Shown: positions 1 through 61,421, counted from the whole stretch's first letter. The stretch is 63,974 nt of DNA, filler included, from GCA_964501035.1; 5 parts of 5 records of this genome joined end to end with filler, not necessarily neighbours in it, one strand, 5' to 3'. The notes: generated by a model not told the origin, from the sequence alone. A program made the numbers and translations.

Positions 1-356
1 TCGTTTGTTGCAGTTGAAGATTGGGTGTCAATATAATCTAAAATTTGACCTGCAAGTGTTTCATTCATACCAGCAGATGCAATCATAGGAATACCATTGG
101 ATTCTTTTAATATTTTTTGAGCATATGCATCACCAGATGCCAACACACCCGTTGGGTCAAGCATCCATTTCACAAGCCAATCACGGTCGGCTCGCTCACT
201 TACACCTTTTAAATCTGGACCAATTGTTTTACCACCCCCAATGGTGTGACATGCTTTACAATTTTGATTAAAATATTGTTCTACATCTTGAGCAGACAAT
301 AGTCCTATTGATAAAAACATAAAACTGATTATGACAAATCCAAAAATTCTTCTCAT
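1..356 (-). CDS. c-type cytochrome, N-terminal part (runs off the window edge)
   Basis: Not in ORF track. Manual translation from ATG at 356 gives MRRIFGFVIISFMFLSIGLLSAQDVEQYFNQNCKACHTIGGGKTIGPDLKGV..., a signal peptide followed by a CxxCH heme motif. AAGGA RBS upstream; no stop before position 1. Confidence 0.9.
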   Translation of the reverse strand, partial: MRRIFGFVIISFMFLSIGLLSAQDVEQYFNQNCKACHTIGGGKTIGPDLKGVSERADRDWLVKWMLDPTGVLASGDAYAQKILKESNGIPMIASAGMNETLAGQILDYIDTQSSTATN

Positions 357-438
357 TCTTTGATTTCCTTTTAAATCTTATAAATATCCTGACGAACAAG
401 GCTTGACTTTTGGGTTTTACACCCTAATCAAGTCCACG

Positions 439-464
439 AATTTATGATTTTACAATCATAAATT
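439..464. promoter_or_regulatory. Perfect 11-4-11 inverted repeat, candidate operator of the cytochrome c gene
   Basis: AATTTATGATT-TTAC-AATCATAAATT, overlapping a TAAATT -10-like hexamer on the minus strand. Confidence 0.45.
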
Positions 465-622
465 AAAAGAATTATTTACCTTTTAACTTATTTATCTTCT
501 TTATGATTGTATTTTATGAGGAAAATAGAAAAAATATTTTATTAAATTATGATAGATATTTTGCAAATAATGGTTAAGATATTGAATTTAAACCCTTGCA
601 TCTTAAATAAAATAAAATATAC

Positions 623-2517: not shown

Positions 2518-2542
2518 TCTAGTTTATTATTTTTAAATGAAA

Positions 2543-3289
2543 TCAAACTATTTCTTCCCAATTTCCTTGCCAAAGTCCTAATTCATCCCATTTTGTTATA
2601 GTATAATTATGCAACCAATCTCCTAAAAATACTAGGTGTTTCCCGTTTTTTTCTTCAATACCGGTTTGGTGATAATGACCAACCATTACGATATCAGTAC
2701 CATTTTTCCACTCAGTTTTTGCATAATTTCGAACTTCATCTCGTACTTTTTCGTTTCTCGGATGAGGTGTGTTTCGCAAAAGTTTTTTATCTGTTCCAGA
2801 TACTTTACCTGCTAACCAACACCCCCACTTTGCAGGATATAATTTAAATAAAAATATACACATATTACTTCGTATAATTTTTTTCATAAACCGATACCCT
2901 TTATCCCACGACAACAAACCATCCCCGTGAGTTATATGAAACGTTTTCCCATCCAATTCAAACATCAATGCTCCATCATGGGTTGTAATTCCGCATTCTT
3001 CCTGCAGATACCCAAAGTCCCAATAATCGTGATTACCGAGTATATAATGAATATCAACCCCACTATTTCTAAGTTCTGAAAGTTGGTTAAGGATTTCTGT
3101 GTAAAAAGGGGGAATAACATTGGGATAATCAAACCAAAAATCGAAAAAATCACCAGCGATTATCAATGATCCCCCCGTAGATTTAATTTTATCAAACACA
3201 GAGTACATTTTTATGCGTCGCTCAACCTCTGGTTTTGAAAGATTCATTTGAAAATGATTATCTGAAATGATGTATATAGGGGATTTCAT
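2543..3289 (-). CDS. lpxH: UDP-2,3-diacylglucosamine hydrolase (LpxH family metallophosphoesterase)
   Basis: Motifs ISDNH, GDFFDFW, GNHD, HGDG, GHYH, LGDW. Start placed at ATG 3289 (MKSPIY). Confidence 0.85.
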   Translation of the reverse strand: MKSPIYIISDNHFQMNLSKPEVERRIKMYSVFDKIKSTGGSLIIAGDFFDFWFDYPNVIPPFYTEILNQLSELRNSGVDIHYILGNHDYWDFGYLQEECGITTHDGALMFELDGKTFHITHGDGLLSWDKGYRFMKKIIRSNMCIFLFKLYPAKWGCWLAGKVSGTDKKLLRNTPHPRNEKVRDEVRNYAKTEWKNGTDIVMVGHYHQTGIEEKNGKHLVFLGDWLHNYTITKWDELGLWQGNWEEIV

Positions 3290-3340
3290 GCACGAAAAAT
3301 TACACTCACTATAATACATTGTCATAATTGAAAATATTAG

Positions 3341-3386
3341 TTGCGTATTTACGCATAAATATTTTAACTTATGCGTGTTGACGCAA
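3341..3386. promoter_or_regulatory. Twin palindromic operator boxes TGCGT-N4-ACGCA, probable ArsR/SmtB binding sites
   Basis: TTGCGT-ATTT-ACGCAT at 3341-3356 and ATGCGT-GTTG-ACGCAA at 3371-3386, 30 bp apart, directly upstream of the operon containing the ArsR gene. Confidence 0.65.
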
Positions 3387-3413
3387 GTATATTAACAAAT
3401 TAAGGAGTTAGAA

Positions 3414-3656
3414 ATGAATTGTGAAAACAGTAAATCTTGTCAATATTTATATGGACTTGTTGACTTAATAACGTTTGTTGGGGGTGCATATTTAGTAAGT
3501 ATTGGCTTATTTGGGCAATGTTGTGCTACCTGTTGTGGACACCTCGCTGTTTTTGGTTTACCACTTATTGTGCTTGGTTTTGTTATTCGAGCGTGGAGAG
3601 GTAAATGTTGCTGTTGCTCATGTTGTTCTGATACGTGCTGTACTGAATCAGAATAG
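3414..3656 (+). CDS. Small cysteine-rich membrane protein (metallothionein-like tail)
   Basis: AAGGAG RBS; two hydrophobic helices; 14 Cys in 80 aa, including CCATCC and CCCCSCCSDTCC. Confidence 0.75.
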   Translation: MNCENSKSCQYLYGLVDLITFVGGAYLVSIGLFGQCCATCCGHLAVFGLPLIVLGFVIRAWRGKCCCCSCCSDTCCTESE

Positions 3657-3670
3657 ATTGAGAGAATAAT

Positions 3671-3988
3671 ATGGGAAGTTGTTGTGGTAAATCCTTGTTA
3701 AATCAATGTAAATCCTTTTTATCTGGGAATTTTTTCAAGGCATTTAGTGATAATAGTCGATCAGAAATAGTACTTCTCATCATGGAACATGGGCAAATGA
3801 CTGTTGGGCAGGTTTCAGAAAAAGTGAATATTAACCAGTCGAACGTGTCACGTCATTTGTCTATGATGCATGAATCCGGAATTATGACCAAAACAAAACA
3901 GGGTCGTGAAGTGAAGTACGGACTCGATTTTCAATCTATCAAGAAAAATTTGAATACATTTTTAGATAGTTTGAATTCGTGTTGTTAA
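3671..3988 (+). CDS. ArsR/SmtB family transcriptional regulator
   Basis: FFKAFSDNSRSEIV...QSNVSRHLSMM...GREVKY winged-HTH signature; CC pairs at both termini. Confidence 0.92.
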   Translation: MGSCCGKSLLNQCKSFLSGNFFKAFSDNSRSEIVLLIMEHGQMTVGQVSEKVNINQSNVSRHLSMMHESGIMTKTKQGREVKYGLDFQSIKKNLNTFLDSLNSCC

Positions 3989-3989
3989 T

Positions 3990-4191
3990 ATGAATTTAAA
4001 ACAATACAAACTCAGAAAAGACCAACGTTTATTCTTTTTTATTTCTAGCTGTTTTCTTTGGACAGGTATATTTATTGAGCGGAATTGAAAACATACATTG
4101 GCTCTTATACATTCCCCCGACAATGTTCTTCGGTGCATCTTTGAATGGCTATTTTGTTATGATGATATTAACGCAGAGATATTTTAAGTAG
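3990..4191 (+). pseudogene. Frameshifted small membrane protein (DUF2892/YgaP-like pattern)
   Basis: ATG 3990 frame reads MNLKQYKLRKDQRLFFFISSCFLWTGI and stops at TGA 4086. The +1 frame continues LLSGIENIHWLLYIPPTMFFGASLNGYFVMMILTQRYFK* (TAG 4189-4191). One extra T at 4071-4073 explains the break. Confidence 0.5.
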
Positions 4192-4600
4192 ATGAATTGT
4201 TTGATTCATCTATCAATGTATCTACAGCAATATCACATGCAATCAACCAATCTGTTTCAATAATATTATCTATTCCTTGAAGCAGGTTTAAAGTTTCACC
4301 TGTTGAAACAGTAATATAGGGAATATCTAAAATGTCTAATGTATCCACAAGAGAGTAAGCAGAATGCTGCCAAGGTCCAGGAAAAATGATGATTCCATCT
4401 GTTTTCTTGCGGTTTCGTTGTAAAAATGTAACTGCCTTACCCTCTTCATTGGTTTGAAGAAATTTACATTCAACATCAAACTTTTTTGCTTTTTGACGAA
4501 TACGTTTATTTATTTTGTCAAGGGTAACTTTCATGCCCGTTTTAGCAGATTTGATTCCAATAATATTTAAGTTTGGTCCGTGAAGAATTAAAAAACGCAT
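4184..4600 (-). CDS. aroQ: Type II 3-dehydroquinate dehydratase-like protein, catalytic residues missing
   Basis: LHGPNLN, QTNEEG and GIIIFPG match AroQ, but the REPxxYG and EVHLSN motifs are absent. Confidence 0.7.
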   Translation of the reverse strand: MRFLILHGPNLNIIGIKSAKTGMKVTLDKINKRIRQKAKKFDVECKFLQTNEEGKAVTFLQRNRKKTDGIIIFPGPWQHSAYSLVDTLDILDIPYITVSTGETLNLLQGIDNIIETDWLIACDIAVDTLIDESNNSST

Positions 4601-5259
4601 TATATTAACTCAATTACTTTATTAACACAAGATTCAACGCCTGTAAATACATCCGCAATATTTTCTGCTAGCATATATGCAGATGTTGTTACAATTTTAT
4701 TGTCCATATCTGTATGTATTTGGTTGACAGTTGTTGCAAAATGAACTGCTCCTGTTTTTTCAATTTCATGAGCAGTTGCTTCATCATTTCCAATGGTAAC
4801 TTCCGGGTTGACACGTGAGCCATCAAATATTTTTGCAATGAGTGCTGGAGCAATACAAATAGCACCAATGGGTTTTTTTTGGGCGTGCATATTTAAGGTT
4901 AATTGTTTCACGTCTTCATTAACCGATGCATTTGCACCATCAACTGCAAAGGTACATAAATTCTTGGCAGCACCAAATCCACCTGGAAAAATAATTGCAT
5001 CAAAATCTTCTGCTGAAATTGTAGCAATATCGATTACATCACCCCGAGCAATACGAGCGGACTCCTCTAATATATTGCGATTCACTGCATTCTCACTACT
5101 TTTTGCATGATTAATAGTATGCATTTGGTCTGTATTTGGAGCAATACATTGATATTGTGCACCTGCTTTATTAATGGCTAATAATGTTGCGGTTGCTTCA
5201 TGAATTTCTGATCCATCAAATACACCTGACCCTGCTAATACGACTGCAATCTTTTTCAT
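4600..5259 (-). CDS. elbB: Glyoxalase ElbB / ES1 (DJ-1/PfpI family)
   Basis: GSGVFDGSEIHEA, ESARIARG, PGGFGAAKNL, GAICIAP motifs. Confidence 0.92.
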   Translation of the reverse strand: MKKIAVVLAGSGVFDGSEIHEATATLLAINKAGAQYQCIAPNTDQMHTINHAKSSENAVNRNILEESARIARGDVIDIATISAEDFDAIIFPGGFGAAKNLCTFAVDGANASVNEDVKQLTLNMHAQKKPIGAICIAPALIAKIFDGSRVNPEVTIGNDEATAHEIEKTGAVHFATTVNQIHTDMDNKIVTTSAYMLAENIADVFTGVESCVNKVIELI

Positions 5260-5297
5260 TTTTCACACTCCATAATTTGAGAAATTACACAAAAACT

Positions 5298-5804
5298 CTA
5301 ATGCTCTTCCAACTTTTTCCGATACAATTCAACAATCTTTTGATGACAAATAAAGGCAAGTTCGGGCAAATCATCTAATGGAAAAAAACCAACCTCAGAG
5401 GCATCATCGCCTGCCTGCAATGGAGACCAATCTTCAATTTTCATTTCTAATCCCATGAGCAATACATCGCCGAACATCGTATCAAAATGAGAACAATTGC
5501 CCAGTAAGTCAACTGCTTTACCACATAAGTTGGTTTCTTCCAACAATTCACGTTCTCCCGCTTGTTCTAAGGTTTCGTTACATTCCATAAAACCGCCGGG
5601 GAGGTTCCACATGCCTTTTGCCGGGTCAAACGCTCTACGGACTAAAAGTAAATCATTATCTTTGGGGCAAATTAGCGTAGCCGTAGGTTTGGGGTTTTCA
5701 TAATGAATGGTATTACAATTCGTACAATGACTACGATCACGCCCTTCGATATGTGAAATAGTATTTAACTGCCCACAATTTGAACAATATTCTAAATGTC
5801 CCAT
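5298..5804 (-). CDS. NUDIX hydrolase with N-terminal zinc ribbon
   Basis: CSNCG...CTNC ribbon; Nudix box PGGFMECNETLEQAGERELLEETNL. Confidence 0.92.
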   Translation of the reverse strand: MGHLEYCSNCGQLNTISHIEGRDRSHCTNCNTIHYENPKPTATLICPKDNDLLLVRRAFDPAKGMWNLPGGFMECNETLEQAGERELLEETNLCGKAVDLLGNCSHFDTMFGDVLLMGLEMKIEDWSPLQAGDDASEVGFFPLDDLPELAFICHQKIVELYRKKLEEH

Positions 5805-5884
5805 TCTGTAATTTAGGGAGAAATATAAATTGATAATGTAAATGATATTGTTCTAAATAACTAAAACAATTAAGGAGAATAGGC

Positions 5885-6054
5885 ATGGGAAATATAGTTA
5901 AAGCAGGTATAATTGGTTTATGTTTTGGTGTCGGTTTTACATATATCGTAAAGTTTATTTATTCCAACAACTAATTTACAGTGGAGTTTAATTGCGGTTT
6001 CATTTGCATCCTTTTTTTGGATCAATCGCAGGGTTTATTGCTGGATCTAAATAA
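5885..6054 (+). pseudogene. Small membrane protein interrupted by two +1 frameshifts
   Basis: TAAGGAG RBS then MGNIVKAGIIGLCFGVGFTYIV. Successive +1 frames give SLFIPTTNLQWSLIAVSFASFF and GSIAGFIAGSK*. Breaks fall at AAA 5950-5952 and the T7 run 6012-6018. Confidence 0.5.
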
Positions 6055-6059
6055 CATAA

Positions 6060-6689
6060 TTACATTATAAATTTAAAACGGGAGTGAACCTCACACCCCG
6101 TTTTGTGTAGTCGTTTTTGGGAGTTGTGACCACGTGATACCAAAATACATTTCACACCAATTGCATGTGCAACCTCTGCATCATGGGTGGTATCTCCAAT
6201 AAATAGAATTTCATCTTTTTCAAATGGAAGCACATCCATCACCTTATGTCCAACGTGGGTTTTGCCATCAGCATAATGGTTAAGCAGTCCACAAATGTGA
6301 GTAAACTTATCTGCAATTTGGTAGTGGTTTACTAACCTATCAAGTGTATCTTGGTTTTGTGCAGAAACAATCGAATGGGTTATTCCCTTATCCAAACAGT
6401 CATTTAAAAATGGGAGTGCATCATCAAACAATTCTGCATCACATTGTCGTTCGTGATAGGCATCAATAAATTCCATTCCTGCTGTTTCAAAGGATTCCTT
6501 CTCTAAATCATACCCCAGTTTTATATAATAATCTTTTACCGGAAATGTAAAAATATCTCTATAAATTTCTTCAGTTATCAAAGGCATATTTCGTTTGGAC
6601 AATACTGAGTTCATGACATCCACAAACAACCATGTGTCGTTTAAAAGAGTGCCGTTCCAATCCCAAATGATATGTTTAATATTGTGCAT
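6060..6689 (-). CDS. HAD-family hydrolase (phosphoglycolate phosphatase-like)
   Basis: Motif I WDWNGTL and motif IV IGDTTHD. Confidence 0.9.
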   Translation of the reverse strand: MHNIKHIIWDWNGTLLNDTWLFVDVMNSVLSKRNMPLITEEIYRDIFTFPVKDYYIKLGYDLEKESFETAGMEFIDAYHERQCDAELFDDALPFLNDCLDKGITHSIVSAQNQDTLDRLVNHYQIADKFTHICGLLNHYADGKTHVGHKVMDVLPFEKDEILFIGDTTHDAEVAHAIGVKCILVSRGHNSQKRLHKTGCEVHSRFKFIM

Positions 6690-8020
6690 TAGTTTCGCTT
6701 AAATACAACTGTGAAGGAAATGTGTGTTTCACCCTGTTGTGGTACATTAATTTTAAATTGTATCTCAGAGGCATTTAATTTATCATAGTTATGTGATGTC
6801 TGAACAATCTCCCAATCTCCCGAAAGATGTTCATTCCAATGTATGCTTACCGCTTCATCACGGGTGTTTTTCAATTGTAGATGTACCACGCTTTCACTCT
6901 TATGTCGATTTAACTCAACGGCATCAATCGTTACTTTGGCTGTGATATCCATGGTGCTACCCGTATGAATTGAAATCGGTTCTCCTGTTTGGGTTAGTGG
7001 AATATTTACAGATCCTACAAATGTTTTGTGTTGGTTATCTGTTTCAATCACATTTACACTTCCTGCAGGGATATGAAAATCAGAAATTTCAGAGGAATTA
7101 AAGCGATGTTTTACTTGAATTGGCATATCACTTTTACTGGTTTGTGAATGAAATCGCAACGAGTGATTGGTGAAATACTCTCGGGTTATAGGAATATTAT
7201 CACCATCAAAAAATGCAACATGTTTACTCGAGTTTCCTCGAATATCAATGGGTTGATGTAATCTAAATTTTATGTAATCAGTTGTTTTTGAAATTGATGA
7301 AACATCCATTATACTATTGGCCTCTAATGATCGCATCATTTTGGGTTGGGGGGCATTTTGTTGATGCACCGTTCCTGAAACCATAGAAACATCCACATTA
7401 ATATACGGAGTTTCTGAGTTATTCGTAATCACATACCACGCAGACCATATTCCATTATTGGATTCGTCAACCAATAGTTCATATTCTGCTTTCCAAGTTA
7501 ATCCAGATACAAAATAGGATACATCTACATCACAGGGGGTTGTAATATTTTTCACATTACAAACCAGATGGGGAGATGGTTGAAACTGTATGTCTTTGGG
7601 GTCAAAAATGGGTGTTAATGGTGGGTTAAACTCATACATTCCATCAATTTCATATAACCTTCCATTGCTGAGTGAAATCAATTTTCCATTTTTTTCAACA
7701 GATATTTCTCCATATTTGTCGTATCTCACAAGCTTAACATTTTTCCCAATATATTGTTTTAAAAATTCAACTTCTGAAATAGATTGAACATGCAGTTCTT
7801 TAGACAACATATCTAAACAATCAGAATCTAGTTGAATATGCTCGTTTTGAATATTTTTGGGCAGATTTTCAATCGTTACTATAGAACTTGGTTTGTCAAA
7901 AGAATTAATAGTTCTGTTTTCTTGAATAAAACTATTTCCATTTTCATATATTGTAATTTGTGCATTTTCAACTGCAAACAGTATCCCAAAACCACTTATG
8001 ATGAGTCCAAATTTTTTCAT
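6689..8020 (-). CDS. DUF4139-domain secreted protein
   Basis: Signal peptide; ITIYEN start and VSYFVSGLTWKAEYEL...ITNNS motifs typical of the family. Confidence 0.75.
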   Translation of the reverse strand: MKKFGLIISGFGILFAVENAQITIYENGNSFIQENRTINSFDKPSSIVTIENLPKNIQNEHIQLDSDCLDMLSKELHVQSISEVEFLKQYIGKNVKLVRYDKYGEISVEKNGKLISLSNGRLYEIDGMYEFNPPLTPIFDPKDIQFQPSPHLVCNVKNITTPCDVDVSYFVSGLTWKAEYELLVDESNNGIWSAWYVITNNSETPYINVDVSMVSGTVHQQNAPQPKMMRSLEANSIMDVSSISKTTDYIKFRLHQPIDIRGNSSKHVAFFDGDNIPITREYFTNHSLRFHSQTSKSDMPIQVKHRFNSSEISDFHIPAGSVNVIETDNQHKTFVGSVNIPLTQTGEPISIHTGSTMDITAKVTIDAVELNRHKSESVVHLQLKNTRDEAVSIHWNEHLSGDWEIVQTSHNYDKLNASEIQFKINVPQQGETHISFTVVFKRN

Positions 8021-8118
8021 AATTCTCCCAATTTTCTACAAAATTATTGTTTCTTCCTCTTGTTTAAAGAATAGAATCCTCCTAAATTTATCGATAATAT
8101 ATGCTCACAAGAAACAAA

Positions 8119-11100
8119 ATGAGACAATATTTTTATCTAATTTTCACCGTTTGGGTGGCAAATCTATGTGCCAGCACTTTTTCTGTTGATCAGATGTTTA
8201 TTCCCAAAATTAATACAAATGATATAAACAAAAATGGACACATTGATTTCATATCTCTTGATGGGGAGCTGGTTCATTGGTCAGTAAGCTTGCAAGAAAT
8301 ATCTGCCAATAGTAATGTAAACACGTTATGGTCATACTCTTTGAAAGAAAGTGGCGATGAAATAGTTGATGTAGATTGGGGCGATTTTGATGGTGATGGC
8401 ATAAAAGAATTATTGATTTTTGTAAATTCAACCACAAATCAAACTCTCCAAATATTTTCACAAACTGATGGTCTTTTTTCCAAAACTCCAACCCATGTTT
8501 CATCAGTTCCCATAAAAAATAATTTAGGTTTATTCCCCAAAGAATGTCAATTAATTCATTGGGATTCAGATTCTGATGTAGAGTTTGCACTTAATTTCAG
8601 TAGTCCATCACGCATGGTTGTCATAGGTGATTTTGAAAATGGCAAATTTGTATCTCTTGCAAAACCTGCAGAGCAATTTATTCGCTCAACTTTTAATCCA
8701 ATCTCGCTTTCAACCCTACCAATTGATGGGAAAGAAAACCAAGCATTAGTAATTGCTAATATGGGAGAAAAAACAACAGGTATGTTGACTTCCTTAGGCT
8801 CGGATGAGAATGTAAATCCAAAAGTTTTACCACTCATAACCCGTAAATTGTTACCAAATGGGTATGTTTTGTTAGATGGTCAACAATTATATTCTATGAT
8901 TTATCAGAAAAACATTCTTTCTGCAAATCAAAATCATACTGGAATTGATATAGCAATTATTGATGGAGTCAATATTCAATTTGGGTATCATCCAAACGGG
9001 GATATTTCTCGATATATTGATCGTGCAAGTTCAGCAGACAAACTCAGTCCAGAATTTGTCGCAAATGAATTCCAAAACGTGTACCATTTACTCTTTGAAA
9101 AACAGCAGAAAATAGTATTAATTCATGGTGGCGATTCTCCAGAACTTGCGGTTTTGGATATTGGACTGTCTGTAGATCCTACATTGCAAAATACAAGCTC
9201 AACCGTTGCTGAGTTTGTGGTTTCTTTAAATCAACCTTTCCAACATCAATTGGATATTGAAACTGAAAACCTAACTAGTTTTGATAGTCAAAATCTTCCA
9301 ACCGGGTCAACCATTGATGAAACAACGTTTACCTACAGTTGGACGCCCAATTTAAATGCGCTAGGTTATCATACAATCTATTTTGATTCAAAATATAGAA
9401 TACTACAAAACTTAGTCAAAACATCGGATGATAATTCTATCAACTTTACACGCCAAGATTCAACATTTGTAATTTCTGATAGTATTTCTATATATGTAAA
9501 TGACCCTCCACAAATATTAAATTCTGAAACTGAATATTTGATAATCAGTGGGGATACTTTGCAAATTCCAATACGAGTTTTGGATAGAAATATTGATGCA
9601 GTGCATTCATTTTCGATTAACACTAATACATCACAGTTTAGTATTGAAAATGATACGGTTTTCCAGTGGATACCGGACTTGGAACATGGAAAATCTACTT
9701 TTGAAATAGACGTAAAGGATGGTTACAGCACTGATAGTTATAATTTTGAAGTAACTGTACATCCGCAAATCCATATTGCTGAAACGCCTGCCAATTTAAT
9801 GGGAGAAGTGAATAAGGAGTTTTATTATAAACCAGACGTTTCTCAGTTGGGTTCTGCCAATACCATTTTGTTTGAACTACTTTATGCTCCAGAAAATATG
9901 GAAATTAATGAAAACGGGGAAATACGGTGGATACCTCTAATTACTCAAGTTGATACTCATAATTTTACTTTGGTTGCCAGTGATAGCATCACGTCGACTG
10001 CAGTTGATATTGCTGTATTTGTTAACTCACCACCAATCATTGCCAAACGACCTTCTCAATTAACCATAATCAGAGATGGAGAATTATTCAACACCACGTT
10101 TTCCAGTTTTGACTCAAATGCTCTCCCAAGTTTGAAATGGAACTTACTATCTTCACCCGATGGAATGATTCTAAATGCTGATGGTAGTTTACAATGGACT
10201 CCAACTAAAATAGGATTATTTACATTTACAGTTGAACTATCGGATGGGATTACAAATACTGATTTTACCGGGTCAATTTATGTGAACGCATTGCCTGAAA
10301 TTACCAGCCAGCCTCCAAATTTTATCAATATAGGCGATACACTTCTCTACACTGTAACTTTTGAAGATAACAACATTCACTCCATCAATAATATGGCTTT
10401 AGAACATAGGGTTACACTAACTCAGGGACCAAGTAATGCAAAGTTATTGGATAACCATGAGCTTGTTTGGATTCCACAAGAATCCCAGTTTGGAGTACAG
10501 TCATTTGAGATATCCATTTTTGATGGAGCAGAAACAATCACTCATTTGTTTGATGTGTTTGTAAATGAAATTCCCACAATAATTTCTAAAAATTCTATCC
10601 AAGTCAAATCAAGTGAAGACTTACAACACCAACTACAGGTTGTTGATACAAATAATGATGCTATTTCATATCACATTCAAAGATTGAACGCGGATACAAC
10701 TAACACTCATTCTGGCGTGTACCTTGATTCTACTACAGGTCTTTTGTCATGGAAAACAAGCAAAGCAGATTTAGGCGTGCATCGGTTTGAAGTTCAAGCA
10801 AGTGATGGACATCCAAATAGTTTTGACACTCAACAATTATCTGTTTTGGTGTATGAACCACCGACCATCACCAATGCAATGCCCCCAGAAGCATTCGTTG
10901 GAATGGATTATTTGTTCACACCCCAAGCGGAAAATATGTATGGAAAAAAAGAGATGTTAGAAGATATTTTCTTAACTATCACATCGAGTACTTCACATAA
11001 TATTATGTTTTTAGATACAGCTGGTGTTCTTCTTTGGACACCAACTCAAGAGGATGTGGGATTACATACAGTTAAACTAACAGTATCAGACCAATTTGGT

Positions 11101-11202
11101 ATTTCATCTGATTATCAATACAATATTCACGTATTTGAAAACCCATGTGACCCATGTGATAATGAGATCGAAATTATCCCTCCTGAAAAAGAAGAACGCT
11201 GA
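8119..11202 (+). CDS. Large secreted protein with FG-GAP-like N-terminus and tandem putative-Ig (He_PIG/cadherin-like) repeats
   Basis: Signal peptide from ATG 8119; DINKNG and GDFDGDG Ca-binding motifs; repeated units with WTP/WIP, ASDG/VSD and VNxxP. Confidence 0.8.
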   Translation: MRQYFYLIFTVWVANLCASTFSVDQMFIPKINTNDINKNGHIDFISLDGELVHWSVSLQEISANSNVNTLWSYSLKESGDEIVDVDWGDFDGDGIKELLIFVNSTTNQTLQIFSQTDGLFSKTPTHVSSVPIKNNLGLFPKECQLIHWDSDSDVEFALNFSSPSRMVVIGDFENGKFVSLAKPAEQFIRSTFNPISLSTLPIDGKENQALVIANMGEKTTGMLTSLGSDENVNPKVLPLITRKLLPNGYVLLDGQQLYSMIYQKNILSANQNHTGIDIAIIDGVNIQFGYHPNGDISRYIDRASSADKLSPEFVANEFQNVYHLLFEKQQKIVLIHGGDSPELAVLDIGLSVDPTLQNTSSTVAEFVVSLNQPFQHQLDIETENLTSFDSQNLPTGSTIDETTFTYSWTPNLNALGYHTIYFDSKYRILQNLVKTSDDNSINFTRQDSTFVISDSISIYVNDPPQILNSETEYLIISGDTLQIPIRVLDRNIDAVHSFSINTNTSQFSIENDTVFQWIPDLEHGKSTFEIDVKDGYSTDSYNFEVTVHPQIHIAETPANLMGEVNKEFYYKPDVSQLGSANTILFELLYAPENMEINENGEIRWIPLITQVDTHNFTLVASDSITSTAVDIAVFVNSPPIIAKRPSQLTIIRDGELFNTTFSSFDSNALPSLKWNLLSSPDGMILNADGSLQWTPTKIGLFTFTVELSDGITNTDFTGSIYVNALPEITSQPPNFINIGDTLLYTVTFEDNNIHSINNMALEHRVTLTQGPSNAKLLDNHELVWIPQESQFGVQSFEISIFDGAETITHLFDVFVNEIPTIISKNSIQVKSSEDLQHQLQVVDTNNDAISYHIQRLNADTTNTHSGVYLDSTTGLLSWKTSKADLGVHRFEVQASDGHPNSFDTQQLSVLVYEPPTITNAMPPEAFVGMDYLFTPQAENMYGKKEMLEDIFLTITSSTSHNIMFLDTAGVLLWTPTQEDVGLHTVKLTVSDQFGISSDYQYNIHVFENPCDPCDNEIEIIPPEKEER

Positions 11203-12434
11203 AAAAAGTAATTGTAATTGGAGGCGGGGCTGCAGGATTAATGGCAGCTGGAACATCTGCGTCAACAGGATCAGACGTTTATGTGTTTGAAAAAAAACCG
11301 CGTATTGGGCTAAAACTCCGAATTACAGGCAAGGGACGATGTAATATTACGAACTCCATGCCCCTTCAAGAATTTATTCAACAAATCCATCCAGATGGCC
11401 GGTTTCTACGACAAGCATTTCATCAATATTTTCGAGATGATACACTCGATTATTTCCATTCGTACGGTGTTCAAACAACGGTTGAAAGGGGTGGACGAAT
11501 TTTTCCAAGCAGCAATAATGCCAACGATGTAGTAAATGCACTTAAAAAATTTGCGACTGAAAATGGAGCAAGAATTCGTACAAACTTTCAAGTATCCAAT
11601 CTAATTTTAGAAAATAAGCAAATTACCGGTGTAAAGCTGAAGGATGGGACCAATCATCAAGCAGATTCTGTAATTATTGCAACAGGGGGTGCATCGTATA
11701 TTTCTACCGGCTCAACAGGTGATGGATTCAATCTCGCAATGCAAGTAGGCCATACTATAACAGAAATTCATCCTGCACTTATTCCACTTGAAACGGCAGG
11801 TGATACTGCAAAGCAACTCCAAGGTCTCAGTTTGAGAAATGTACATGTTTCGTATTGGATTGATGGCAAGAAATGTATTGAAGATTTTGGAGAAATGCTG
11901 TTTACACATTTTGGAGTTTCGGGGCCAATTATATTACGCACAAGTCGAGATATTGTTATTGCGTTGCATACTCAAAAATCCGTCCAAATGAAAATAGATT
12001 TAAAACCAGCATTGGACCACAAAAAATTAGATAATAAATTAATTCGAGATTTTCAAGAACATTATAAACTAAAATTCAAAAACTATCTCAAATATCTCTT
12101 ACCACAAAAAATGATTTCCGTATTTCTTAATACCTTACAATTTGATTCTGAATTAACTTGTAATCATATTTCTGCAAAACAACGAAAGGCATTACGGATG
12201 CTTTTAAAAGAATTCACACTAAAGATAACAGGAAATAGACCTCTTGCAGCTGCCATAGTTACAGCGGGTGGTGTTTCAACAAAAGAAATTAATCCCAAAA
12301 CGATGGAATCAAAACTTATTGAGGGCTTATACTTTGCAGGAGAAGTAATTGATGTGGATGCAGATACGGGTGGATTTAACTTACAAGCTGCTTTCTCTAC
12401 GGGACATGTTGCAGGGGAAAATGCCGGGAGTTAA
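11199..12434 (+). CDS. NAD(P)/FAD-dependent oxidoreductase, HI0933/YhiN/BaiN family
   Basis: ITGKGRCNITN, GRIFP, ATGGAS, GEMLFTHFGVSGP, TGGFNLQ. The Rossmann motif VIVIGGGAAGLMAA lies upstream of the tracked ATG, so the start is probably CTG 11199. Confidence 0.9.
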   Translation: MKKVIVIGGGAAGLMAAGTSASTGSDVYVFEKKPRIGLKLRITGKGRCNITNSMPLQEFIQQIHPDGRFLRQAFHQYFRDDTLDYFHSYGVQTTVERGGRIFPSSNNANDVVNALKKFATENGARIRTNFQVSNLILENKQITGVKLKDGTNHQADSVIIATGGASYISTGSTGDGFNLAMQVGHTITEIHPALIPLETAGDTAKQLQGLSLRNVHVSYWIDGKKCIEDFGEMLFTHFGVSGPIILRTSRDIVIALHTQKSVQMKIDLKPALDHKKLDNKLIRDFQEHYKLKFKNYLKYLLPQKMISVFLNTLQFDSELTCNHISAKQRKALRMLLKEFTLKITGNRPLAAAIVTAGGVSTKEINPKTMESKLIEGLYFAGEVIDVDADTGGFNLQAAFSTGHVAGENAGS

Positions 12435-12785
12435 TTACAATTTAATTCCAAATTGATTTAATATAATTCCAAGTAAAAAATAACTACATAACGTAGCAAT
12501 TATGGACACCCCTAAAGAAAAGTAAAAATCTACTCCTCGTTTTAATAGTAACGGAAACACTACAAAAAATACAATCGATGGAAAAACAAACCAAAAAATA
12601 TGATTCGCGACATCAATAATTTTGGATATATTTTTTGTGTCGATATACAACCAAATCAATGCCAAAACAGATAGCAATGGAATTGATGCAAGCAATGCAC
12701 CCCAAAATGAACTTCGTTTAGAAATTTCTGATATTAGGACAACTAAAGTGGATGTAATTAGAATTTTTGCAAGATATACCAACAC
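12435..12785 (-). CDS. DUF3147-family membrane protein
   Basis: ISEISKRSSFWGALLASIPLLSVLALIWLY motif; four hydrophobic segments. Confidence 0.8.
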   Translation of the reverse strand: MLVYLAKILITSTLVVLISEISKRSSFWGALLASIPLLSVLALIWLYIDTKNISKIIDVANHIFWFVFPSIVFFVVFPLLLKRGVDFYFSLGVSIIATLCSYFLLGIILNQFGIKL

Positions 12786-15670
12786 TATAACATTTCTCGT
12801 AAAAATTGCCCCGTAAACGATTTTTTGATTTGACTAACCTGCTCAGGGGTACCCTCTGCAATAATTTTACCACCACCATTTCCACCCTCCGGACCCAAAT
12901 CAATAATCCAATCTGAAGATTTGATAACATCAAGGTTATGTTCAATCACAACAACCGTATTGCCTTTTTCGACCAACCCCTGTAGCACATCTAATAACAT
13001 TTTAACATCTTCAAAGTGTAAGCCCGTGGTAGGTTCATCTAAAATATACATGGTTCTACCTGTACCAACTCTCGATAACTCAGAGGCAAGTTTAACCCGT
13101 TGTGATTCACCTCCAGAAAGCGTGGTTGCTTGTTGTCCGAGTTTAATATAGCCCAAACCAACATCAAAAAGGGTTTTCAACTTTCGAGCTGTAGAATGAT
13201 GATGTTTGAAAAATTCCATTGCTTCTTCAATGGTCATGTCCAAAATTTGATAAATATTTTTTCCTCGATAGGTAACTTCTAAGGTTTCGCGATTATAACG
13301 CATACCTTTACAATCTTCGCATTGTACATACATATCTGCTAAAAAATGCATTTCTATTTTTATGAGTCCCACACCTTGGCATGCTTCACACCGACCTCCC
13401 TTTACATTGAAGGAGAATCTACCGGGTTTGTATCCTCGGATTTGTGCTTCGGGTAATTGACTAAACAATTCACGAATATGTGTGAATAATCCCGTATATG
13501 TTGCGGGGTTTGAGCGTGGTGTCCTGCCAATAGGAGATTGATCAATATCCACTACTTTATCTAAGCACAATAACCCATCAACCGAATCAAATGGAAGTGA
13601 TTTTTTCTGGCTTGCATAAAATTCACGAGCGAGAATTGGATAGAGTGTTTGATTGATAAGAGAAGACTTTCCAGAGCCAGAAACCCCAGTTACACATACA
13701 AATTTGCCCAATGGAATTGTAGCAGATACTCTTTTTAAATTATTTCCCCGAGCATTATTTATTACCACCGATTTTCCATTTCCTGCTCTTCTTTTATGTG
13801 TGACAGTAATTTCGGATTTTCCGGATAAGTACTGTCCAGTAATAGATGCGGAACAGCTTTCAATTTTTTCAGGTTGTCCAGAGTATATAATTTCACCCCC
13901 ATGGATACCTGCTTTGGGTCCCATATCTACCACCCAATCTGCAGAACGAATGGTTTCTTCATCGTGTTCTACTACAATAATAGTATTTCCTAAATCCCGA
14001 AGGTGTTCAAGAGTTTGAATAAGTCTCCTATTATCTCGTTGATGCAAACCAATGGAGGGTTCATCCAAAATATACAAAACACCCATGAGTTGAGATCCAA
14101 TTTGAGTTGCTAGACGGATTCGTTGTGCTTCCCCACCTGAAAGTGTACCTGCTGACCGACTCAAGGTAAGGTAGCTCAATCCTACATTCACCAAAAATCC
14201 CAAACGTGATTTTATCTCTTTAGTAATTTGTTCTGCTATTTCTTCATCACGTTTTGAAAGAGATAGATTTTGGAAAAAATCGTACAAAGAACCAATTGTT
14301 TCTTCCGTAAGTGAATAAATATTTTGTTTATCAACGTGCACAGCTAGAATAGATTGTTTGAGTCGTGCACCTTTGCAGGTAGTGCATTTTTGAATCGTCA
14401 TATATTTTTCTATCCATTCGCGCATATGTCCCGATTTTGTTTGCTCATACCTGCGTTGTAGATTCCGTATGACCCCTTCAAAACTGCCCTTATATTCACC
14501 TTTAAATTTTTCCGATTGATATTCCATGGTAATATCTTCATTGGGCTTTGTCCCATGTAAAAGTACATGTTGAACTTCACTGCCCAAATCCATCCATGGA
14601 GTTGTAAACGCAAAATTATAATGTTTGGCTAAACTTTTTAAAATGGCACTATACCAATTACCACGAGGTTGTTCACCAATGGGTTCTATTGCACCTTGCA
14701 CTAAACTTTTTCGTTTATCCGGCACAACCAACTCAGCATCAATGGACATTTGTGTTCCTAGTCCACCGCAATCTTGACATGCTCCAAATGGGGAATTAAA
14801 CGAAAACAAACGGGGCTGTAATTCTTCAAATGAAATATCACATTTTGGGCATGAATAATGTTCGCTGTATAGATGTTCCTCAGCATCAATGACATCAATA
14901 ATGACCAAACCATTTCCTACTTTTAAAGCCAATTCCACCGATGCTGTGAGTCGTTCTTGCATACTTTTTTTAGCAACCAATCTGTCAATCAGCACATCAA
15001 TGCTATGCTTTTTGGTTTTCTTTAAGGTAATGGAATCACTCAGATTTTGTGTTTCACCATTGATGCGTACACGAACAAATCCTTCCCGAGCAATGGATGC
15101 AAGAACGTCCTTAAATGTTCCTTTTTTTTGCCGTACTACCGGGGCAAGCACTTGGAATTTTACGCCATCTTCCATGGTCATTATTTTATCGACGATTTGT
15201 TGGACAGTTTGTTTTTTAACTTCACCCTTACACTTATGACACTTCTGTTTACCAATACGTGCATATAACAGTCGTAGATAATCATAAATTTCTGTAATTG
15301 TACCAACGGTTGAACGGGGATTTCGGCTGGTTGATTTCTGCTCTATGGATATGGCTGGAGACAATCCTTCAATATTGTCCACATCCGGTTTTTCCATTAT
15401 ACCCAAAAATTGACGAGCATAGGCAGATAGGGATTCCACATATCGTCGTTGACCCTCGGCATATATGGTGTCAAATGCAAGTGACGATTTACCCGAACCA
15501 GACAGACCAGTAATCACCACCATTTGATTGCGAGGAATTTCTAAATCAATATTTTTTAAGTTATGCTCTCGAGCACCCTTTACAACCAACTTGGCTTGGC
15601 TTGCTGATAATGTCGTAATTTTGCGTTTCATAAGTAACCCAAAAAGTACAGACTTTTTGAATGCATGCAA
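12785..15670 (-). CDS. uvrA: Excinuclease ABC subunit A
   Basis: GAREHNLKN; two Walker A motifs (GLSGSGKSS, GVSGSGKSS); zinc fingers; LSGGE signatures. Start may be ATG 15631. Confidence 0.98.
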   Translation of the reverse strand: MHAFKKSVLFGLLMKRKITTLSASQAKLVVKGAREHNLKNIDLEIPRNQMVVITGLSGSGKSSLAFDTIYAEGQRRYVESLSAYARQFLGIMEKPDVDNIEGLSPAISIEQKSTSRNPRSTVGTITEIYDYLRLLYARIGKQKCHKCKGEVKKQTVQQIVDKIMTMEDGVKFQVLAPVVRQKKGTFKDVLASIAREGFVRVRINGETQNLSDSITLKKTKKHSIDVLIDRLVAKKSMQERLTASVELALKVGNGLVIIDVIDAEEHLYSEHYSCPKCDISFEELQPRLFSFNSPFGACQDCGGLGTQMSIDAELVVPDKRKSLVQGAIEPIGEQPRGNWYSAILKSLAKHYNFAFTTPWMDLGSEVQHVLLHGTKPNEDITMEYQSEKFKGEYKGSFEGVIRNLQRRYEQTKSGHMREWIEKYMTIQKCTTCKGARLKQSILAVHVDKQNIYSLTEETIGSLYDFFQNLSLSKRDEEIAEQITKEIKSRLGFLVNVGLSYLTLSRSAGTLSGGEAQRIRLATQIGSQLMGVLYILDEPSIGLHQRDNRRLIQTLEHLRDLGNTIIVVEHDEETIRSADWVVDMGPKAGIHGGEIIYSGQPEKIESCSASITGQYLSGKSEITVTHKRRAGNGKSVVINNARGNNLKRVSATIPLGKFVCVTGVSGSGKSSLINQTLYPILAREFYASQKKSLPFDSVDGLLCLDKVVDIDQSPIGRTPRSNPATYTGLFTHIRELFSQLPEAQIRGYKPGRFSFNVKGGRCEACQGVGLIKIEMHFLADMYVQCEDCKGMRYNRETLEVTYRGKNIYQILDMTIEEAMEFFKHHHSTARKLKTLFDVGLGYIKLGQQATTLSGGESQRVKLASELSRVGTGRTMYILDEPTTGLHFEDVKMLLDVLQGLVEKGNTVVVIEHNLDVIKSSDWIIDLGPEGGNGGGKIIAEGTPEQVSQIKKSFTGQFLREML

Positions 15671-15689
15671 AGCATTATTTGTGAAATTT

Positions 15690-56810: not shown

Positions 56811-57584
56811 ATGCCCTTCGATACATCAGAATTTCAAAATACAATTTACCATGATTCACAACGGTACGATGATGAAATGTACTGGAAAAAAGATGATATG
56901 GAATTTTGGAAGTTAATTTTGGATACTACACCCAATAAAAAGATACTAGAACTTGGTGCGGGAACGGGTCGTTTGGCTGTTCCACTGATTCGTGAAGGTG
57001 CTCATTACACAGGTCTTGAAATTTCATCTGAGTTTTGTAAAACTGCTCAACATAAAATTGCTGATTTTGGAAACAATCATAACATTATCCAAGGAGATAT
57101 GCGGAATTTTAATCTAAATCAGTCATTTGATTTAATTTTTATTGGATTTAATTCCTTTCTTCATTTGTTGTCAGATGACGATGCTATTGCATGTATAGAA
57201 AGTGCAAAAAAGCACATGGTTAAAGGTAAAAGTAGATTCATAATTGATATTTTTGTTCCAGATCCATTATTTTTGTATCGACCCGAAAATATGAAATATC
57301 CAGTAATGGAATACATTGATTCAAAGACCAATGAAAAAGTATTGGTTGAAGAAACATCAGAATATGACCCTGCAACAGAAATAAATAAAATTTCATGGTT
57401 TTACAAAGCGGAAACGCCCACAGATAATCGGGAATATAATTTTACAATGCGAATGTTCTTCCCCGATACAATGAATCGAATTTTAACTGATGCTGGTTTT
57501 ACTATTCAAAATGTATGGGGTGATCATTATCAAACACCCTTTAATGAAGGCAGTACGTTACAAATTTACGATTGTATCCTATGA
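56811..57584 (+). CDS. Class I SAM-dependent methyltransferase
   Basis: ILELGAGTGR, QGDMRNF, FNSFLHL. Confidence 0.9.
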   Translation: MPFDTSEFQNTIYHDSQRYDDEMYWKKDDMEFWKLILDTTPNKKILELGAGTGRLAVPLIREGAHYTGLEISSEFCKTAQHKIADFGNNHNIIQGDMRNFNLNQSFDLIFIGFNSFLHLLSDDDAIACIESAKKHMVKGKSRFIIDIFVPDPLFLYRPENMKYPVMEYIDSKTNEKVLVEETSEYDPATEINKISWFYKAETPTDNREYNFTMRMFFPDTMNRILTDAGFTIQNVWGDHYQTPFNEGSTLQIYDCIL

Positions 57585-58195
57585 CAAATCGAGATGCAAT
57601 CACATATCTAAAAGAACGAGATACACGTTTTGTCCAATTGGAAACAAACTTTGGAATACCCGATTTTACACCAGAGACAAATTATTTTGAGTCCCTAGTT
57701 CGAGCAATTGTGTATCAACAACTTAGTGGAAAAGCAGCAAACACCATTTATAAACGATTTCTTAATTTATTTGACGATACATCATACCCCACTCCAACAA
57801 TGGTTCTCGATATTCCATTTGAAACGTTGAGATCTGTTGGACTTTCAAATCAAAAATCCAATTATATCATTAACCTGTCTGAGCATTGTAGAGATGAAAA
57901 GTTACATTTTGAGGCATTTAACAATATGACAGATAATGAAATTAGTCATGAACTCATACAGGTTAAGGGAATTGGACAATGGACAGTTGATATGTTTTTG
58001 ATGTTTACGCTTAATCGACCCGATGTATTCCCCTTAAACGATTTAGGAATTCAAAAAGGATTTATGAAGTTTTACAAATTGGATGACTTGCCTTCCTTGG
58101 AATTGATGCAAAAAGAATCGGAACAATGGAAACCCTATCGCACTTATGTAGCTTGGTATATGTGGAAAATTGTAGATGGACCTTTTGAATGGTGA
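57581..58195 (+). CDS. alkA: DNA-3-methyladenine glycosylase II (AlkA family)
   Basis: IVYQQLSGKAA, HhH VKGIGQWT, FPLNDLG, WKPYRT. Confidence 0.9.
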   Translation: MTNRDAITYLKERDTRFVQLETNFGIPDFTPETNYFESLVRAIVYQQLSGKAANTIYKRFLNLFDDTSYPTPTMVLDIPFETLRSVGLSNQKSNYIINLSEHCRDEKLHFEAFNNMTDNEISHELIQVKGIGQWTVDMFLMFTLNRPDVFPLNDLGIQKGFMKFYKLDDLPSLELMQKESEQWKPYRTYVAWYMWKIVDGPFEW

Positions 58196-58785
58196 AAACA
58201 CTATTTTTAGACCTCTTTGGTGTACTTTTGGGGATTGACCAATCTGTTGTAATACAAAAAATTGCAACTAAAGTTGATTCACCCTATTTAACGGTTAAAG
58301 ATATTGTTATGGGTGAAATATTTATGCGATTGGAAAGAGGCGAAATTGCATTTAAACAATATTTCCAAGATTTACAATATGCATTACCAAATGGGGAACG
58401 TTTAGAATATGAATGGCTCAAAGATATTTGGTTAAATTCCCAAGTTGGTGAACTTCCTTTAGTTAATGAACTTCCAATATTGCAATCGACTTTCAATATT
58501 TGGTTAATTTCAAACACAACCAACAGGCATATTTCACATTTGAAAAATCAATTTCCGTTTCTAAATAAGGTGAATGGTATTATAACCTCTGAGGAAGCAG
58601 GAGTGAGAAAGCCTGATCATTCAATTTTTCAATTTGCAGTTTATGAATCCAAAGCTGATAGTAAAACTTCATATTTTATTGATGATATGTGGGCGAATGT
58701 AAAATCAGCGCAAGATTTTGGATTTAAAGCACATCGTTATACAGATTTTGAAGAATGTATGAATTTCCTTCATTCTATTCAATAA
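58189..58785 (+). CDS. HAD-family phosphatase (YihX-like)
   Basis: FLDLFGVL, ISNT, KPD, FIDD...NV. Confidence 0.85.
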   Translation: MVKTLFLDLFGVLLGIDQSVVIQKIATKVDSPYLTVKDIVMGEIFMRLERGEIAFKQYFQDLQYALPNGERLEYEWLKDIWLNSQVGELPLVNELPILQSTFNIWLISNTTNRHISHLKNQFPFLNKVNGIITSEEAGVRKPDHSIFQFAVYESKADSKTSYFIDDMWANVKSAQDFGFKAHRYTDFEECMNFLHSIQ

Positions 58786-59510
58786 TGATTGATGTATTTA
58801 ACATTGAAAAACTGACTCATTTATCGCTTAAAAATAAACTGGGATTAAAAGTTTATCCATGGCGAAAAATCAAACTATACAATACTAACACAAAATATAA
58901 ACCTTTACACAAAAGCAAAATTGCAATTATCACAACTGCAGGATTCTCTATAAAAAACAATCAACCACCATTTGATGAAAATGTTCGCGGTGGTGATTGG
59001 TCGTATAGAAAAATCCCAAATACCGTGAAAAGGGATGAGTTAATTGAAAATCATCGAAGTAGTACATTCGACCATTCTGGGATTGTTGAAAATCCTTTTT
59101 CAGTATTACCAATTCCTCATCTGCAATCGCTATTGGATGACAATTTAATAGGATCTGTAAGTCATCGTCATTTTTCAGTAATGGGTTCTATTACAGCACC
59201 GGGTCGATTTATAAAACATACAATCCCAAAGATAGTTGAAAAATGCATACAAGATAACATAGATTTAGTATTGTTAATTCCTGTCTGACCTATGTGTCAT
59301 CAAGTAGTTTGCTTGATTCAAGAAAAATTAGAAAAAGTTCAGATAACCACCACTTCAATTTCCATTATTCCTGAGATTACAGAGCAGGTTGGATGTCCAA
59401 GATTTTTACATGTACCCTATCCATTAGGTTATCCACTTGGAACAGATGATGATTTTGAACATCAAAAAGATGTTTGTTTGAACGCATTAAAACTAGTAGA
59501 ATATAACTAA
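58785..59510 (+). CDS. PrdB/GrdB-family selenoprotein (Sec at TGA 59286-59288)
   Basis: The tracked ORFs 58755-59288 and 59292-59510 are in the same frame and separated only by TGA-CCT. Read-through gives ...DLVLLIPV-U-PMCHQ..., collinear with D-proline reductase PrdB (VLLTAG-U-GTCH). 241 aa from ATG 58785. Confidence 0.88.
59299..59317 (+). promoter_or_regulatory. Candidate bacterial SECIS hairpin
   Basis: ATCAAGTA-GTT-TGCTTGAT; the stem starts at the 11th nt after UGA and the apical loop begins with G. Confidence 0.65.
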
Positions 59511-59532
59511 ATAATTTCTTAAGGAGAAAGAC

Positions 59533-60117
59533 ATGACAGTTTTAACTGAACCATCCATAGAACGTGCATTTAAAAAGGTTTTTAATGAACAGTTAGACCA
59601 AATTGTGCCAGTAGTTGCAAATTCAATAATTGCAGTTGTGTTGACTATTGTTTTTGCTGTTACAATTATCGGAATATTAGCAATCCCAGCACTGTGGGGT
59701 GGATATATTAAATCAATCATTGATGTCAATAATGGAGAACAGTTGCAAATTGGTAAGTTTATATCTCTTGGTTTTAACAAGTTTGGTGCAATGCTTGGTG
59801 CGTCTCTTATTTCGGTAATAGGTATAGGGTTAGGATTAATTTGTTTTGTAATTCCTGGTATTTACCTTATGGTTCGATGGGTGTTTGTGCCATATTTAAT
59901 TATGAATGAAAATTTAGAAATTTCAGATGCATTTCGCGTTTCAGGTCAGCTTGTGAATGGTAGATGGTGGGATATTTTTGTAATGGTTCTAATTGTAGAG
60001 CTGCTCGAAACAATACTAACTTGGACTGGTATTGGAATCATTCTTGGAGTTCCCTTTAGTACAGGTGTAACTGCACAATATTACTTAGACTTATCAACTA
60101 TGAGGAATTCCGAATGA
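59533..60117 (+). CDS. Integral membrane protein (DUF975-like)
   Basis: AAGGAG RBS; ICFVIPGIYLMVRW...DAFRVSGQLVNGRWW pattern. Confidence 0.7.
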   Translation: MTVLTEPSIERAFKKVFNEQLDQIVPVVANSIIAVVLTIVFAVTIIGILAIPALWGGYIKSIIDVNNGEQLQIGKFISLGFNKFGAMLGASLISVIGIGLGLICFVIPGIYLMVRWVFVPYLIMNENLEISDAFRVSGQLVNGRWWDIFVMVLIVELLETILTWTGIGIILGVPFSTGVTAQYYLDLSTMRNSE

Positions 60118-61321: not shown

Positions 61322-61421
61322 NNNNNNNNNNNNNNNNNNNNNNNNNNNNNNNNNNNNNNNNNNNNTTAATTAATTAANNNNNNNNNNNNNNNNNNNNNNN
61401 NNNNNNNNNNNNNNNNNNNNN
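61322..61421. other. Artificial contig linker
   Basis: 44 N + TTAATTAATTAA + 44 N. Confidence 0.97.

Follow-up and report, generated by a model that had tools for sequence, protein, structure and literature searches.

The window considered here is the whole stretch of DNA that was analysed, 63,974 nucleotides (filler included) from the genome assembly GCA_964501035.1, and the subject of this work is a gene on its plus strand that is predicted to encode a selenoprotein similar to PrdB, a member of the GrdB/PrdB superfamily, across a single in-frame TGA. The gene and its relevant elements are the following.

58785..59510, plus strand: predicted PrdB-like selenoprotein gene, from the ATG at 58785 to the TAA at 59508-59510 (241 codons plus TAA)
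59289..59507, plus strand: the 73 C-terminal codons after the predicted selenocysteine (Sec) codon, translated only by read-through
59295..59297, plus strand: TGT codon of Cys171, the putative resolving cysteine of the UxxC motif and first residue of the predicted helix 171-184
59299..59317, plus strand: SECIS-type (selenocysteine insertion sequence) hairpin, with an 8-bp stem (59299-59306 with 59310-59317) and the apical loop GUU (59307-59309)

The only in-frame TGA is codon 168 (59286-59288) and stands for the first residue of the motif U-P-M-C. The start at 58785, where the ATG and the TAA stop of the preceding HAD gene have an A in common (TAATG), fits the homologues, which open with MID(V/S)F; a longer open reading frame (ORF) of 177 aa begins at 58755. 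The motifs KIAIITTAG (residues 45-53), GDWSYRKIP (70-78), and HFSVMG (129-134) precede the TGA, VLLIPV-U-PMCH (162-172) spans it, and PRFLHVPYPLG (205-215) follows it.

Among the NCBIfam models, the top match is the PrdB model TIGR04483, aligned to residues 38-238 with 105.9 bits (E 2e-30). The Pfam model GRDB (PF07355), with a gathering cut-off of 22, scores 25.8 bits against the read-through protein and 27.2 bits against the N-terminal piece; the match places residues 29-164 on profile positions 211-344 of 347, so that the model stops just before the TGA. The Sec/Cys position of the UxxC motif that is typical of the GrdB/PrdB superfamily is also present, and by these profile and motif comparisons the protein is assigned to a short, PrdB-like branch of this superfamily, 241 residues in length. 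A preliminary description of this DNA had joined two called ORFs through the TGA into one protein of 241 aa with similarity to PrdB on both sides of the codon, and both points hold: the frame 58785-59510 was verified, and every motif quoted was found, within a TIGR04483 alignment that covers both sides.

Evidence on the in-frame TGA

Five independent lines of evidence—the exchange of Cys for Sec among homologues, the alignment with a Sec position of the superfamily, a conserved hairpin, signs of selection on the read-through, and the Sec machinery of the host—lead to the assignment of the TGA at 59286-59288 as the Sec codon of a PrdB/GrdB-like UxxC protein, in agreement with the preliminary description. 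For the first of them, one genome per species was scanned; 297 genomes encode a relative, and the best 80 loci were analysed. The aligned codon is TGA in 79 of these 80 loci, which belong to other species, and TGC in the remaining one, and it always precedes P-x-C-(H/N/P)-Q. A protein search covering 5.8 billion sequences returned 89 matches, six of which are 247 aa long and carry Cys at the Sec position, reading PV-C-PMC(H/N)Q. The remaining 83 are mostly 160-167 aa in length, and in the alignment of ten of these the sequence always stops at ...PV, directly ahead of the Sec position. Both forms that the preliminary description had asked after, TGA and Cys, are therefore found at this codon. 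Moreover, in an ungapped alignment U168 falls on U351, likewise encoded by TGA, in a canonical protein of the GrdB type (435 aa) from a Desulfobacterales genome; this protein scores 520 bits against PF07355 and has its own in-frame TGA within UGSCTRC. The TGA thus falls at the Sec position of the family.

Downstream of the codon, P169, C171, Q173, L177, E183, G215, and Q227 are invariant among the aligned full-length sequences (72/72 in the case of Cys171). In 25 of the 80 loci a residue other than Met occupies the x of U-P-x-C, and only three of these loci have GTG or TTG there; since about 22 of the 80 homologues lack a start codon, the C-terminal piece is generally unable to start alone, which argues against homologues consisting of two separately translated proteins. 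AlphaFold2, run on the 72-sequence alignment, predicts the read-through protein as one compact alpha/beta domain across the TGA, with a mean predicted local distance difference test score (pLDDT) of 94.3 and a predicted template modelling score (pTM) of 0.92. The seven invariant positions after Sec, the modelled single domain, and the frequent absence of Met indicate that read-through is under selection, and the two called ORFs are assigned to one gene, mis-split by gene callers, whose internal TGA is selenocysteine.

The codon is also stable among strains, as contigs of three further independent studies span codon 168 with the TGA unchanged; no TGT or TGC, which the preliminary description had regarded as contrary evidence, appears in them. 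In the contigs of two other studies, eight strain single-nucleotide polymorphisms were counted, all of them within the 501 nt upstream of the TGA, and the 222 nt downstream have none; comparison with the 97%-identical fragment P0002 suggests that about five of them alter a residue. A general reassignment of TGA (genetic code 4 or 25) was ruled out, because this codon terminates 131 of the 717 ORFs of 300 aa or more in the host genome, which has a GC content of 33.8%.

In bacteria, a SECIS element is a hairpin that directly follows the UGA and has G/U in its apical loop. The 8-bp stem with its GUU loop has both features: it begins 11 nt after the UGA, a distance that is fixed among homologues, and in the 80 sequences aligned from the TGA the apical-loop G is invariant and the next U is conserved in at least 90%. 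In the same alignment, 89.1% of the stem cells pair, and five of the eight stem pairs exhibit compensatory changes, with both sides changed (71 cells). The covariation score of the hairpin was reached by 0 of 500 shuffles, and pairing falls to 15-44% when the stem partner is slid by 1-3 columns. The stem lies in the codons for residues 172-178, with codons 173-177 at 59301-59315, and its structure leaves a visible mark on the protein: residues 174 and 176 co-vary (V/C here; A/G, T/G, or S/G elsewhere in the family) in a way that preserves the base pairs.

The preliminary description had taken the gene as evidence that the host encodes the Sec machinery, and a search of the host genome—a metagenome-assembled genome (MAG) of 1.87 Mb in 167 contigs, 95.7% complete—found all of it. 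selA (523 bits), selB (375 bits), and selD (379 bits) are above their cut-offs, with selA and selB adjoining each other, and the tRNA-Sec is recognised both by RF01852 (65.8 bits) and by ARAGORN (tRNA-SeC, anticodon tca). The selD gene (G000:C13:7047-7973) has one in-frame TGA, from which the selenophosphate synthetase of the host is itself assigned as a selenoprotein. Relatives share this machinery, contrary to one outcome that had been considered adverse, since selA is over its cut-off in 53 of the 61 genomes of the host's order and present in 30/30 of the high-quality ones. The PrdB-like gene occurs in 12 of these 61 genomes, each time with TGA, and is thus distributed patchily among the organisms that use Sec. 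Of the named carriers, a Candidatus Neomarinimicrobiota MAG comes nearest (locus L018, 51% identity), and the metagenome runs that contain the gene are seawater or brine, which suggests that the host is probably a small, AT-rich marine bacterium of the Marinimicrobia (SAR406).

Gene neighbourhood and the search for a partner

The gene is preceded and followed on the same strand by five others, listed here together with two glycosylase genes from other loci.

56811..57584, plus strand: class I S-adenosylmethionine-dependent methyltransferase (PF13649, 57.8 bits)
57572..58195, plus strand: AlkA-like HhH-GPD DNA glycosylase (PF00730, 65.8 bits; NF007641, 42.9, far under its cut-off of 229)
58189..58785, plus strand: HAD-family hydrolase (PF00702/PF13419), whose stop overlaps the selenoprotein start
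59533..60117, plus strand: small multi-pass membrane protein, starting 22 nt downstream of the selenoprotein gene; the same neighbour is found in locus L017
60114..61321, plus strand: M48 (Ste24/HtpX-type) peptidase (PF16491 and PF01435), cut by the contig end
L020:6311-7216 and L032:2549-3439: further glycosylase positions

Matches of the membrane protein are sub-threshold, both to PF10110 (27.0 vs 29.6) and to the YciC-like NF002774 (30.5 vs 227). The window is composed of several contigs joined by N spacers: positions 1-15689 map to contig C37, whereas the gene lies on C41. The latter contig ends at 61321, cutting the M48 gene that starts at 60114, and is followed at 61322-61421 by runs of N flanking the linker TTAATTAATTAA. 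The next contig (61447-63972) has a large open-ended ORF of more than 842 aa, which contains internal repeated modules with recurring 'GCTDP.ATNYNE.A' segments.

The contig that carries the gene is only about 14.8 kb long, so the absence of prdA and grdE from it, pointed out in the preliminary description, says little, and the whole genome was searched instead. The profile of PrdA/GrdE (PF09338) was not found in the host genome, nor in four of five other carrier genomes, which include that of the 73%-identical congener locus L017, two genomes with chromosome records, and a third with the locus on a 5-Mb contig. The search is able to detect the family, because it gave a match of 281 bits in the Desulfobacterales genome G002, far from the PrdB-like genes of that genome. 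In this genome (loci L115-L119), four short PrdB-like paralogues occur alongside a single canonical GrdB-type gene (435 aa), and the GrdE-like gene is located more than 1 Mb from the GrdB-type one.

The methyltransferase, the AlkA-like glycosylase, the HAD hydrolase, and the selenoprotein gene follow one another with end-to-start overlaps on the same strand, and the congener locus L017 has this run as well. The coupling to a methyltransferase-alkA-HAD run that had been reported for this locus is thus real, but it has little functional weight, as the context is confined to a few genera. In the host's order, the overlap between the HAD gene and the selenoprotein gene occurs in three genera, according to a neighbour table from which locus L114 was left out, and the HAD gene lies beside the selenoprotein gene in 0 of the 78 loci beyond L017. 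Orthologues of the HAD hydrolase exist in 28 of the 61 relatives, many of them without the selenoprotein gene, and lie on other contigs in three carriers; the HAD hydrolase was therefore ruled out as an obligate partner.

For a broader view, the proteins encoded within two genes on each side were compared across the 80 loci. The 277 neighbour proteins fall into 202 clusters, the largest of which is an alpha/beta-hydrolase-OsmC fusion, located immediately downstream of the gene in 10 Desulfobacterales loci. No neighbour is common across lineages, and a conserved partner was ruled out by this approach. Annotation was carried out for 70 of the 202 cluster representatives, taking those with most loci first, plus two sets of 18 and 25 proteins; none of these 113 neighbour proteins belongs to the PrdA, GrdA, or thioredoxin families. 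The 132 unannotated cluster representatives are nearly all single-locus.

A weaker association concerns base-excision-repair DNA glycosylases, of which three families occur at most 1.6 kb from the gene in four separate contexts. AlkA-type enzymes are encoded in the window (57572-58195) and in L017, Tag is encoded 10 nt upstream of the gene in L018 (4133-4777), Fpg in 11 Thermoanaerobaculia loci, and Fpg/Nei in one Anaeromyxobacter locus, where it lies on the same strand 219 nt downstream of the gene. This adjacency is about four times the chance expectation, with p near 0.02, by a rough, post-hoc estimate, and because that is only marginally above chance it is a lead rather than a result.

Proposed function and competing explanations

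Secondary structure assignment with DSSP on the model gives a strand at residues 161-165, a loop with Sec168, and a helix at 171-184 that begins at Cys171, a placement typical of redox-active CxxC/UxxC pairs. Across the 72 sequences, the invariant polar positions are D64, G69-G70-D71, R75, H90-R91-S92, D96-H97, H129, and S131, and a loop specific to the clade, M133-G-S-I-T-A-P-G-R141, is invariant as well. Such invariance is more indicative of a defined pocket for small molecules than of a general disulfide exchanger, although the pocket is so far predicted from conservation.

On this basis, a reaction cycle can be proposed. According to the comparative evidence, SelB with Sec-tRNA(Sec) would be recruited by the hairpin 11 nt past the UGA, and Sec would be inserted at position 168. 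The selenolate of Sec168 would then attack the substrate, an oxidised or electrophilic compound bound in a pocket whose walls are formed by the invariant polar residues from D64 to R141. Resolution of the adduct by Cys171 would give a selenenyl-sulfide, which thioredoxin or another dithiol of the cell would reduce back.

Given the placement of the redox pair and the invariant polar residues, the protein is best interpreted as a stand-alone selenol/thiol reductase, with Sec168 inserted through SelB and the hairpin, which would have no pyruvoyl partner and would not be a subunit of proline or glycine reductase. A probability of about 0.6 is assigned to this interpretation as a whole. It is close to the one given in the preliminary description, a stand-alone Sec redox enzyme in a non-clostridial host, which is supported by the evidence on the Sec codon and by the lack of a PF09338 match in the genome.

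Several observations weigh against this interpretation. Both the proposed redox cycle and its substrate pocket are deduced from motif position and conservation, and the fold offers no independent support for any chemistry, because its structural matches are to generic alpha/beta domains. No match to the model was obtained with Foldseek against the PDB at E <= 0.001, just as searches of PDB chains with the single sequence or with the 72-sequence profile returned none. A wide VIA-align search retrieved generic three-layer alpha/beta domains only, the best of them microcystinase C (7ylq_B; Z 8.9, root-mean-square deviation 3.7, 152 aligned); next come LacI-type, receiver, glycosyltransferase, and Argonaute MID domains, with Z of 6.5-8. 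As regards the partner, the absence of PrdA is established on one MAG that is 95.7% complete and with one Pfam model, and GrdA (PF04723) gave no match in the host genome, nor in any control genome, so this search has no positive control. Conserved gene neighbourhood was the sole partner test, which leaves room for a non-homologous partner encoded elsewhere. Finally, no run on record as RNA contains the gene. A contig of 259 nt from a run labelled metatranscriptomic, but probably DNA, covers 59332-59590 with a word depth of 27, reaching from the 3' end of the gene across the 22-nt spacer into the beginning of the following gene; it was not used as evidence.

Another explanation, possible although on the whole doubtful, is that the protein contributes the selenoprotein subunit to a reductase of several proteins, in which the substrate-activating partner is non-homologous to PrdA/GrdE and encoded elsewhere, and that its stand-alone character is an artefact of a view limited to neighbours. 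According to a review, the characterised relatives PrdB and GrdB both act in complexes; also in favour are the HAD hydrolase, whose gene overlaps that of the selenoprotein start to stop in three genera of the order, and the alpha/beta-hydrolase-OsmC fusion directly downstream in the 10 Desulfobacterales loci. Nevertheless, no neighbour recurs from one lineage to another (the 277 proteins form 202 clusters), the HAD orthologue is present in 28/61 relatives, often without the gene, and on separate contigs in three carriers, and the invariant polar residues of the family would suggest a self-contained active site.

A role as a self-sufficient selenoenzyme that copes with oxidised or alkylated cell components, in a clade unrelated to Stickland chemistry, is improbable; the enzyme would then have a substrate pocket of its own, marked by the MGSITAPGR loop of the clade and by the invariant D64, GGD69-71, R75, and HRS90-92. 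The sole hint towards this role is the adjacency to DNA glycosylases in four contexts.

The chances are slimmer still that the protein is a true B subunit of D-proline (or glycine/betaine) reductase, with its PrdA/GrdE lying in the unassembled 4% of the genome or being too diverged to be recognised. TIGR04483 is indeed the best NCBIfam match (E 2e-30), JGI calls many homologues 'D-proline reductase (dithiol) PrdB', and a MAG in 167 contigs may lack genes; however, the TIGR04483 score is a third of the equivalog cut-off, PF09338 was found neither in the host nor in the L017 genome, the two genomes with chromosome records, or the carrier with the 5-Mb contig, the search for GRDA (made without a positive control) gave no match, and the UxxCxxC motif is absent (UPMCHQ vs UGSCTRC). 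As it would work without a pyruvoyl partner (PrdA/GrdE) or GrdA, unlike PrdB or GrdB of clostridia, the PrdB-like protein is taken not to belong to a D-proline or glycine reductase.

That the TGA is a real stop, giving a product of 167 aa with the downstream ORF of 72 codons separate or untranslated (through decay, assembly error, or the existence of two proteins), is barely conceivable, since, even though TGA is a normal stop in this genome and gene callers cut nearly all homologues here (hence the entries of 160-167 aa), the codon is kept in 79/80 loci with Cys as the sole alternative and in contigs of three studies, and it is followed by seven invariant residues, a covarying hairpin, and a C-terminal part that lacks a start codon in about 22/80 homologues and is modelled with the N-terminal part as one confident fold.

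Comparison with known selenoprotein systems

The interpretation of the gene as a stand-alone selenol/thiol reductase has to be set against three characterised types of proteins and one family from ocean surveys. Clostridial PrdB (TIGR04483) is the closest of the named models, with a similar size (profile of 238 positions) and Sec in a UxxC motif at the equivalent place, and both proteins would probably use a Sec/Cys couple for a reductive step. The differences, on the other hand, are the score of 105.9 bits, a third of the equivalog cut-off of 300 bits, the lack of PF09338 in the genome and of prd-type neighbours, and the marine, non-clostridial host.

With GrdB, GrdF, and GrdH (PF07355, TIGR01918), the protein shares the homologous C-terminal half, with Sec aligned on Sec, and a PLG-type motif after the Sec region. 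Unlike these proteins, it is devoid of the N-terminal half (241 aa vs about 430 aa, 435 aa in the canonical example) and of the second Cys of the UxxCxxC motif, given for GrdB in a review: the sequence is UPMCHQ here and UGSCTRC in the canonical example. In addition, TIGR01918 scores 39.7 bits, vs a cut-off of 65.45, and no GrdE was found in the genome.

The UxxC/CxxC thiol-disulfide oxidoreductases, such as the thioredoxin-like selenoproteins, exhibit the same succession of a strand, a loop with U, and a C at the N-terminus of a helix. However, a thioredoxin fold was not detected in the PrdB-like protein by any of the searches run.

The closest counterpart is a family already described from the ocean. 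In the survey of Sargasso Sea selenoproteins (Zhang, Fomenko & Gladyshev 2005, PMC1088965), a 'Proline reductase PrdB' with a UxxC motif, assigned to pfam07355, is listed as the third most abundant selenoprotein family, with 42 Sec sequences vs 1 Cys, and the Global Ocean Sampling (GOS) selenoproteome (Zhang & Gladyshev 2008, PMC2398784) counts 235 Sec and 110 Cys sequences of the same family in 38 samples. A 'proline reductase' selenoprotein of Anaeromyxobacter dehalogenans and Geobacter uraniireducens is also named by Zhang et al. 2006. In the accessible sections of two reviews, from 2022 and 2026, only 'D-proline reductase' is named; a literature search for 'PrdB-like' with 'selenoprotein' gave no paper, and none was found that assigns a substrate to the partner-less clade. 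The Sec call of the preliminary description was thus right yet not new, because a PrdB-like family has been in ocean surveys since 2005, and the novelty conveyed by 'hidden orphan' was overstated, the family having been published under the name 'Proline reductase PrdB, UxxC' from that year on (PMC1088965, PMC2398784).

Two changes in annotation follow. The locus should be recorded as one selenoprotein of 241 aa, instead of a fragment of 167 or 177 aa plus an ORF of 72 aa, and the name of D-proline reductase, which JGI gives to many homologues, is unsuitable, as it implies Stickland proline reduction and its essential partner was not found in the genome. The copy described here adds little beyond a clean example of minimal length with a well-supported SECIS. 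The family itself is among the commonest selenoprotein families of the ocean, represented in GOS by 235 Sec sequences, and its members almost always retain Sec in place of Cys. Its function is testable at the bench, because members exist in cultured bacteria, according to Zhang et al. 2006.

Judged by the published descriptors, the gene and the Sargasso/GOS family would belong to the same clade, as the protein is also pfam07355-positive, has Sec in a UxxC motif, occurs in seawater runs, and has homologues dominated by Sec (79/80). Those papers carry over the name and function of PrdB, whereas here the protein scores below the PrdB equivalog cut-off and no PrdA was detected, which suggests that the family name 'proline reductase PrdB' is probably a misnomer. 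The selenoprotein call is correct, and the gene is a new member of an already known selenoprotein family.

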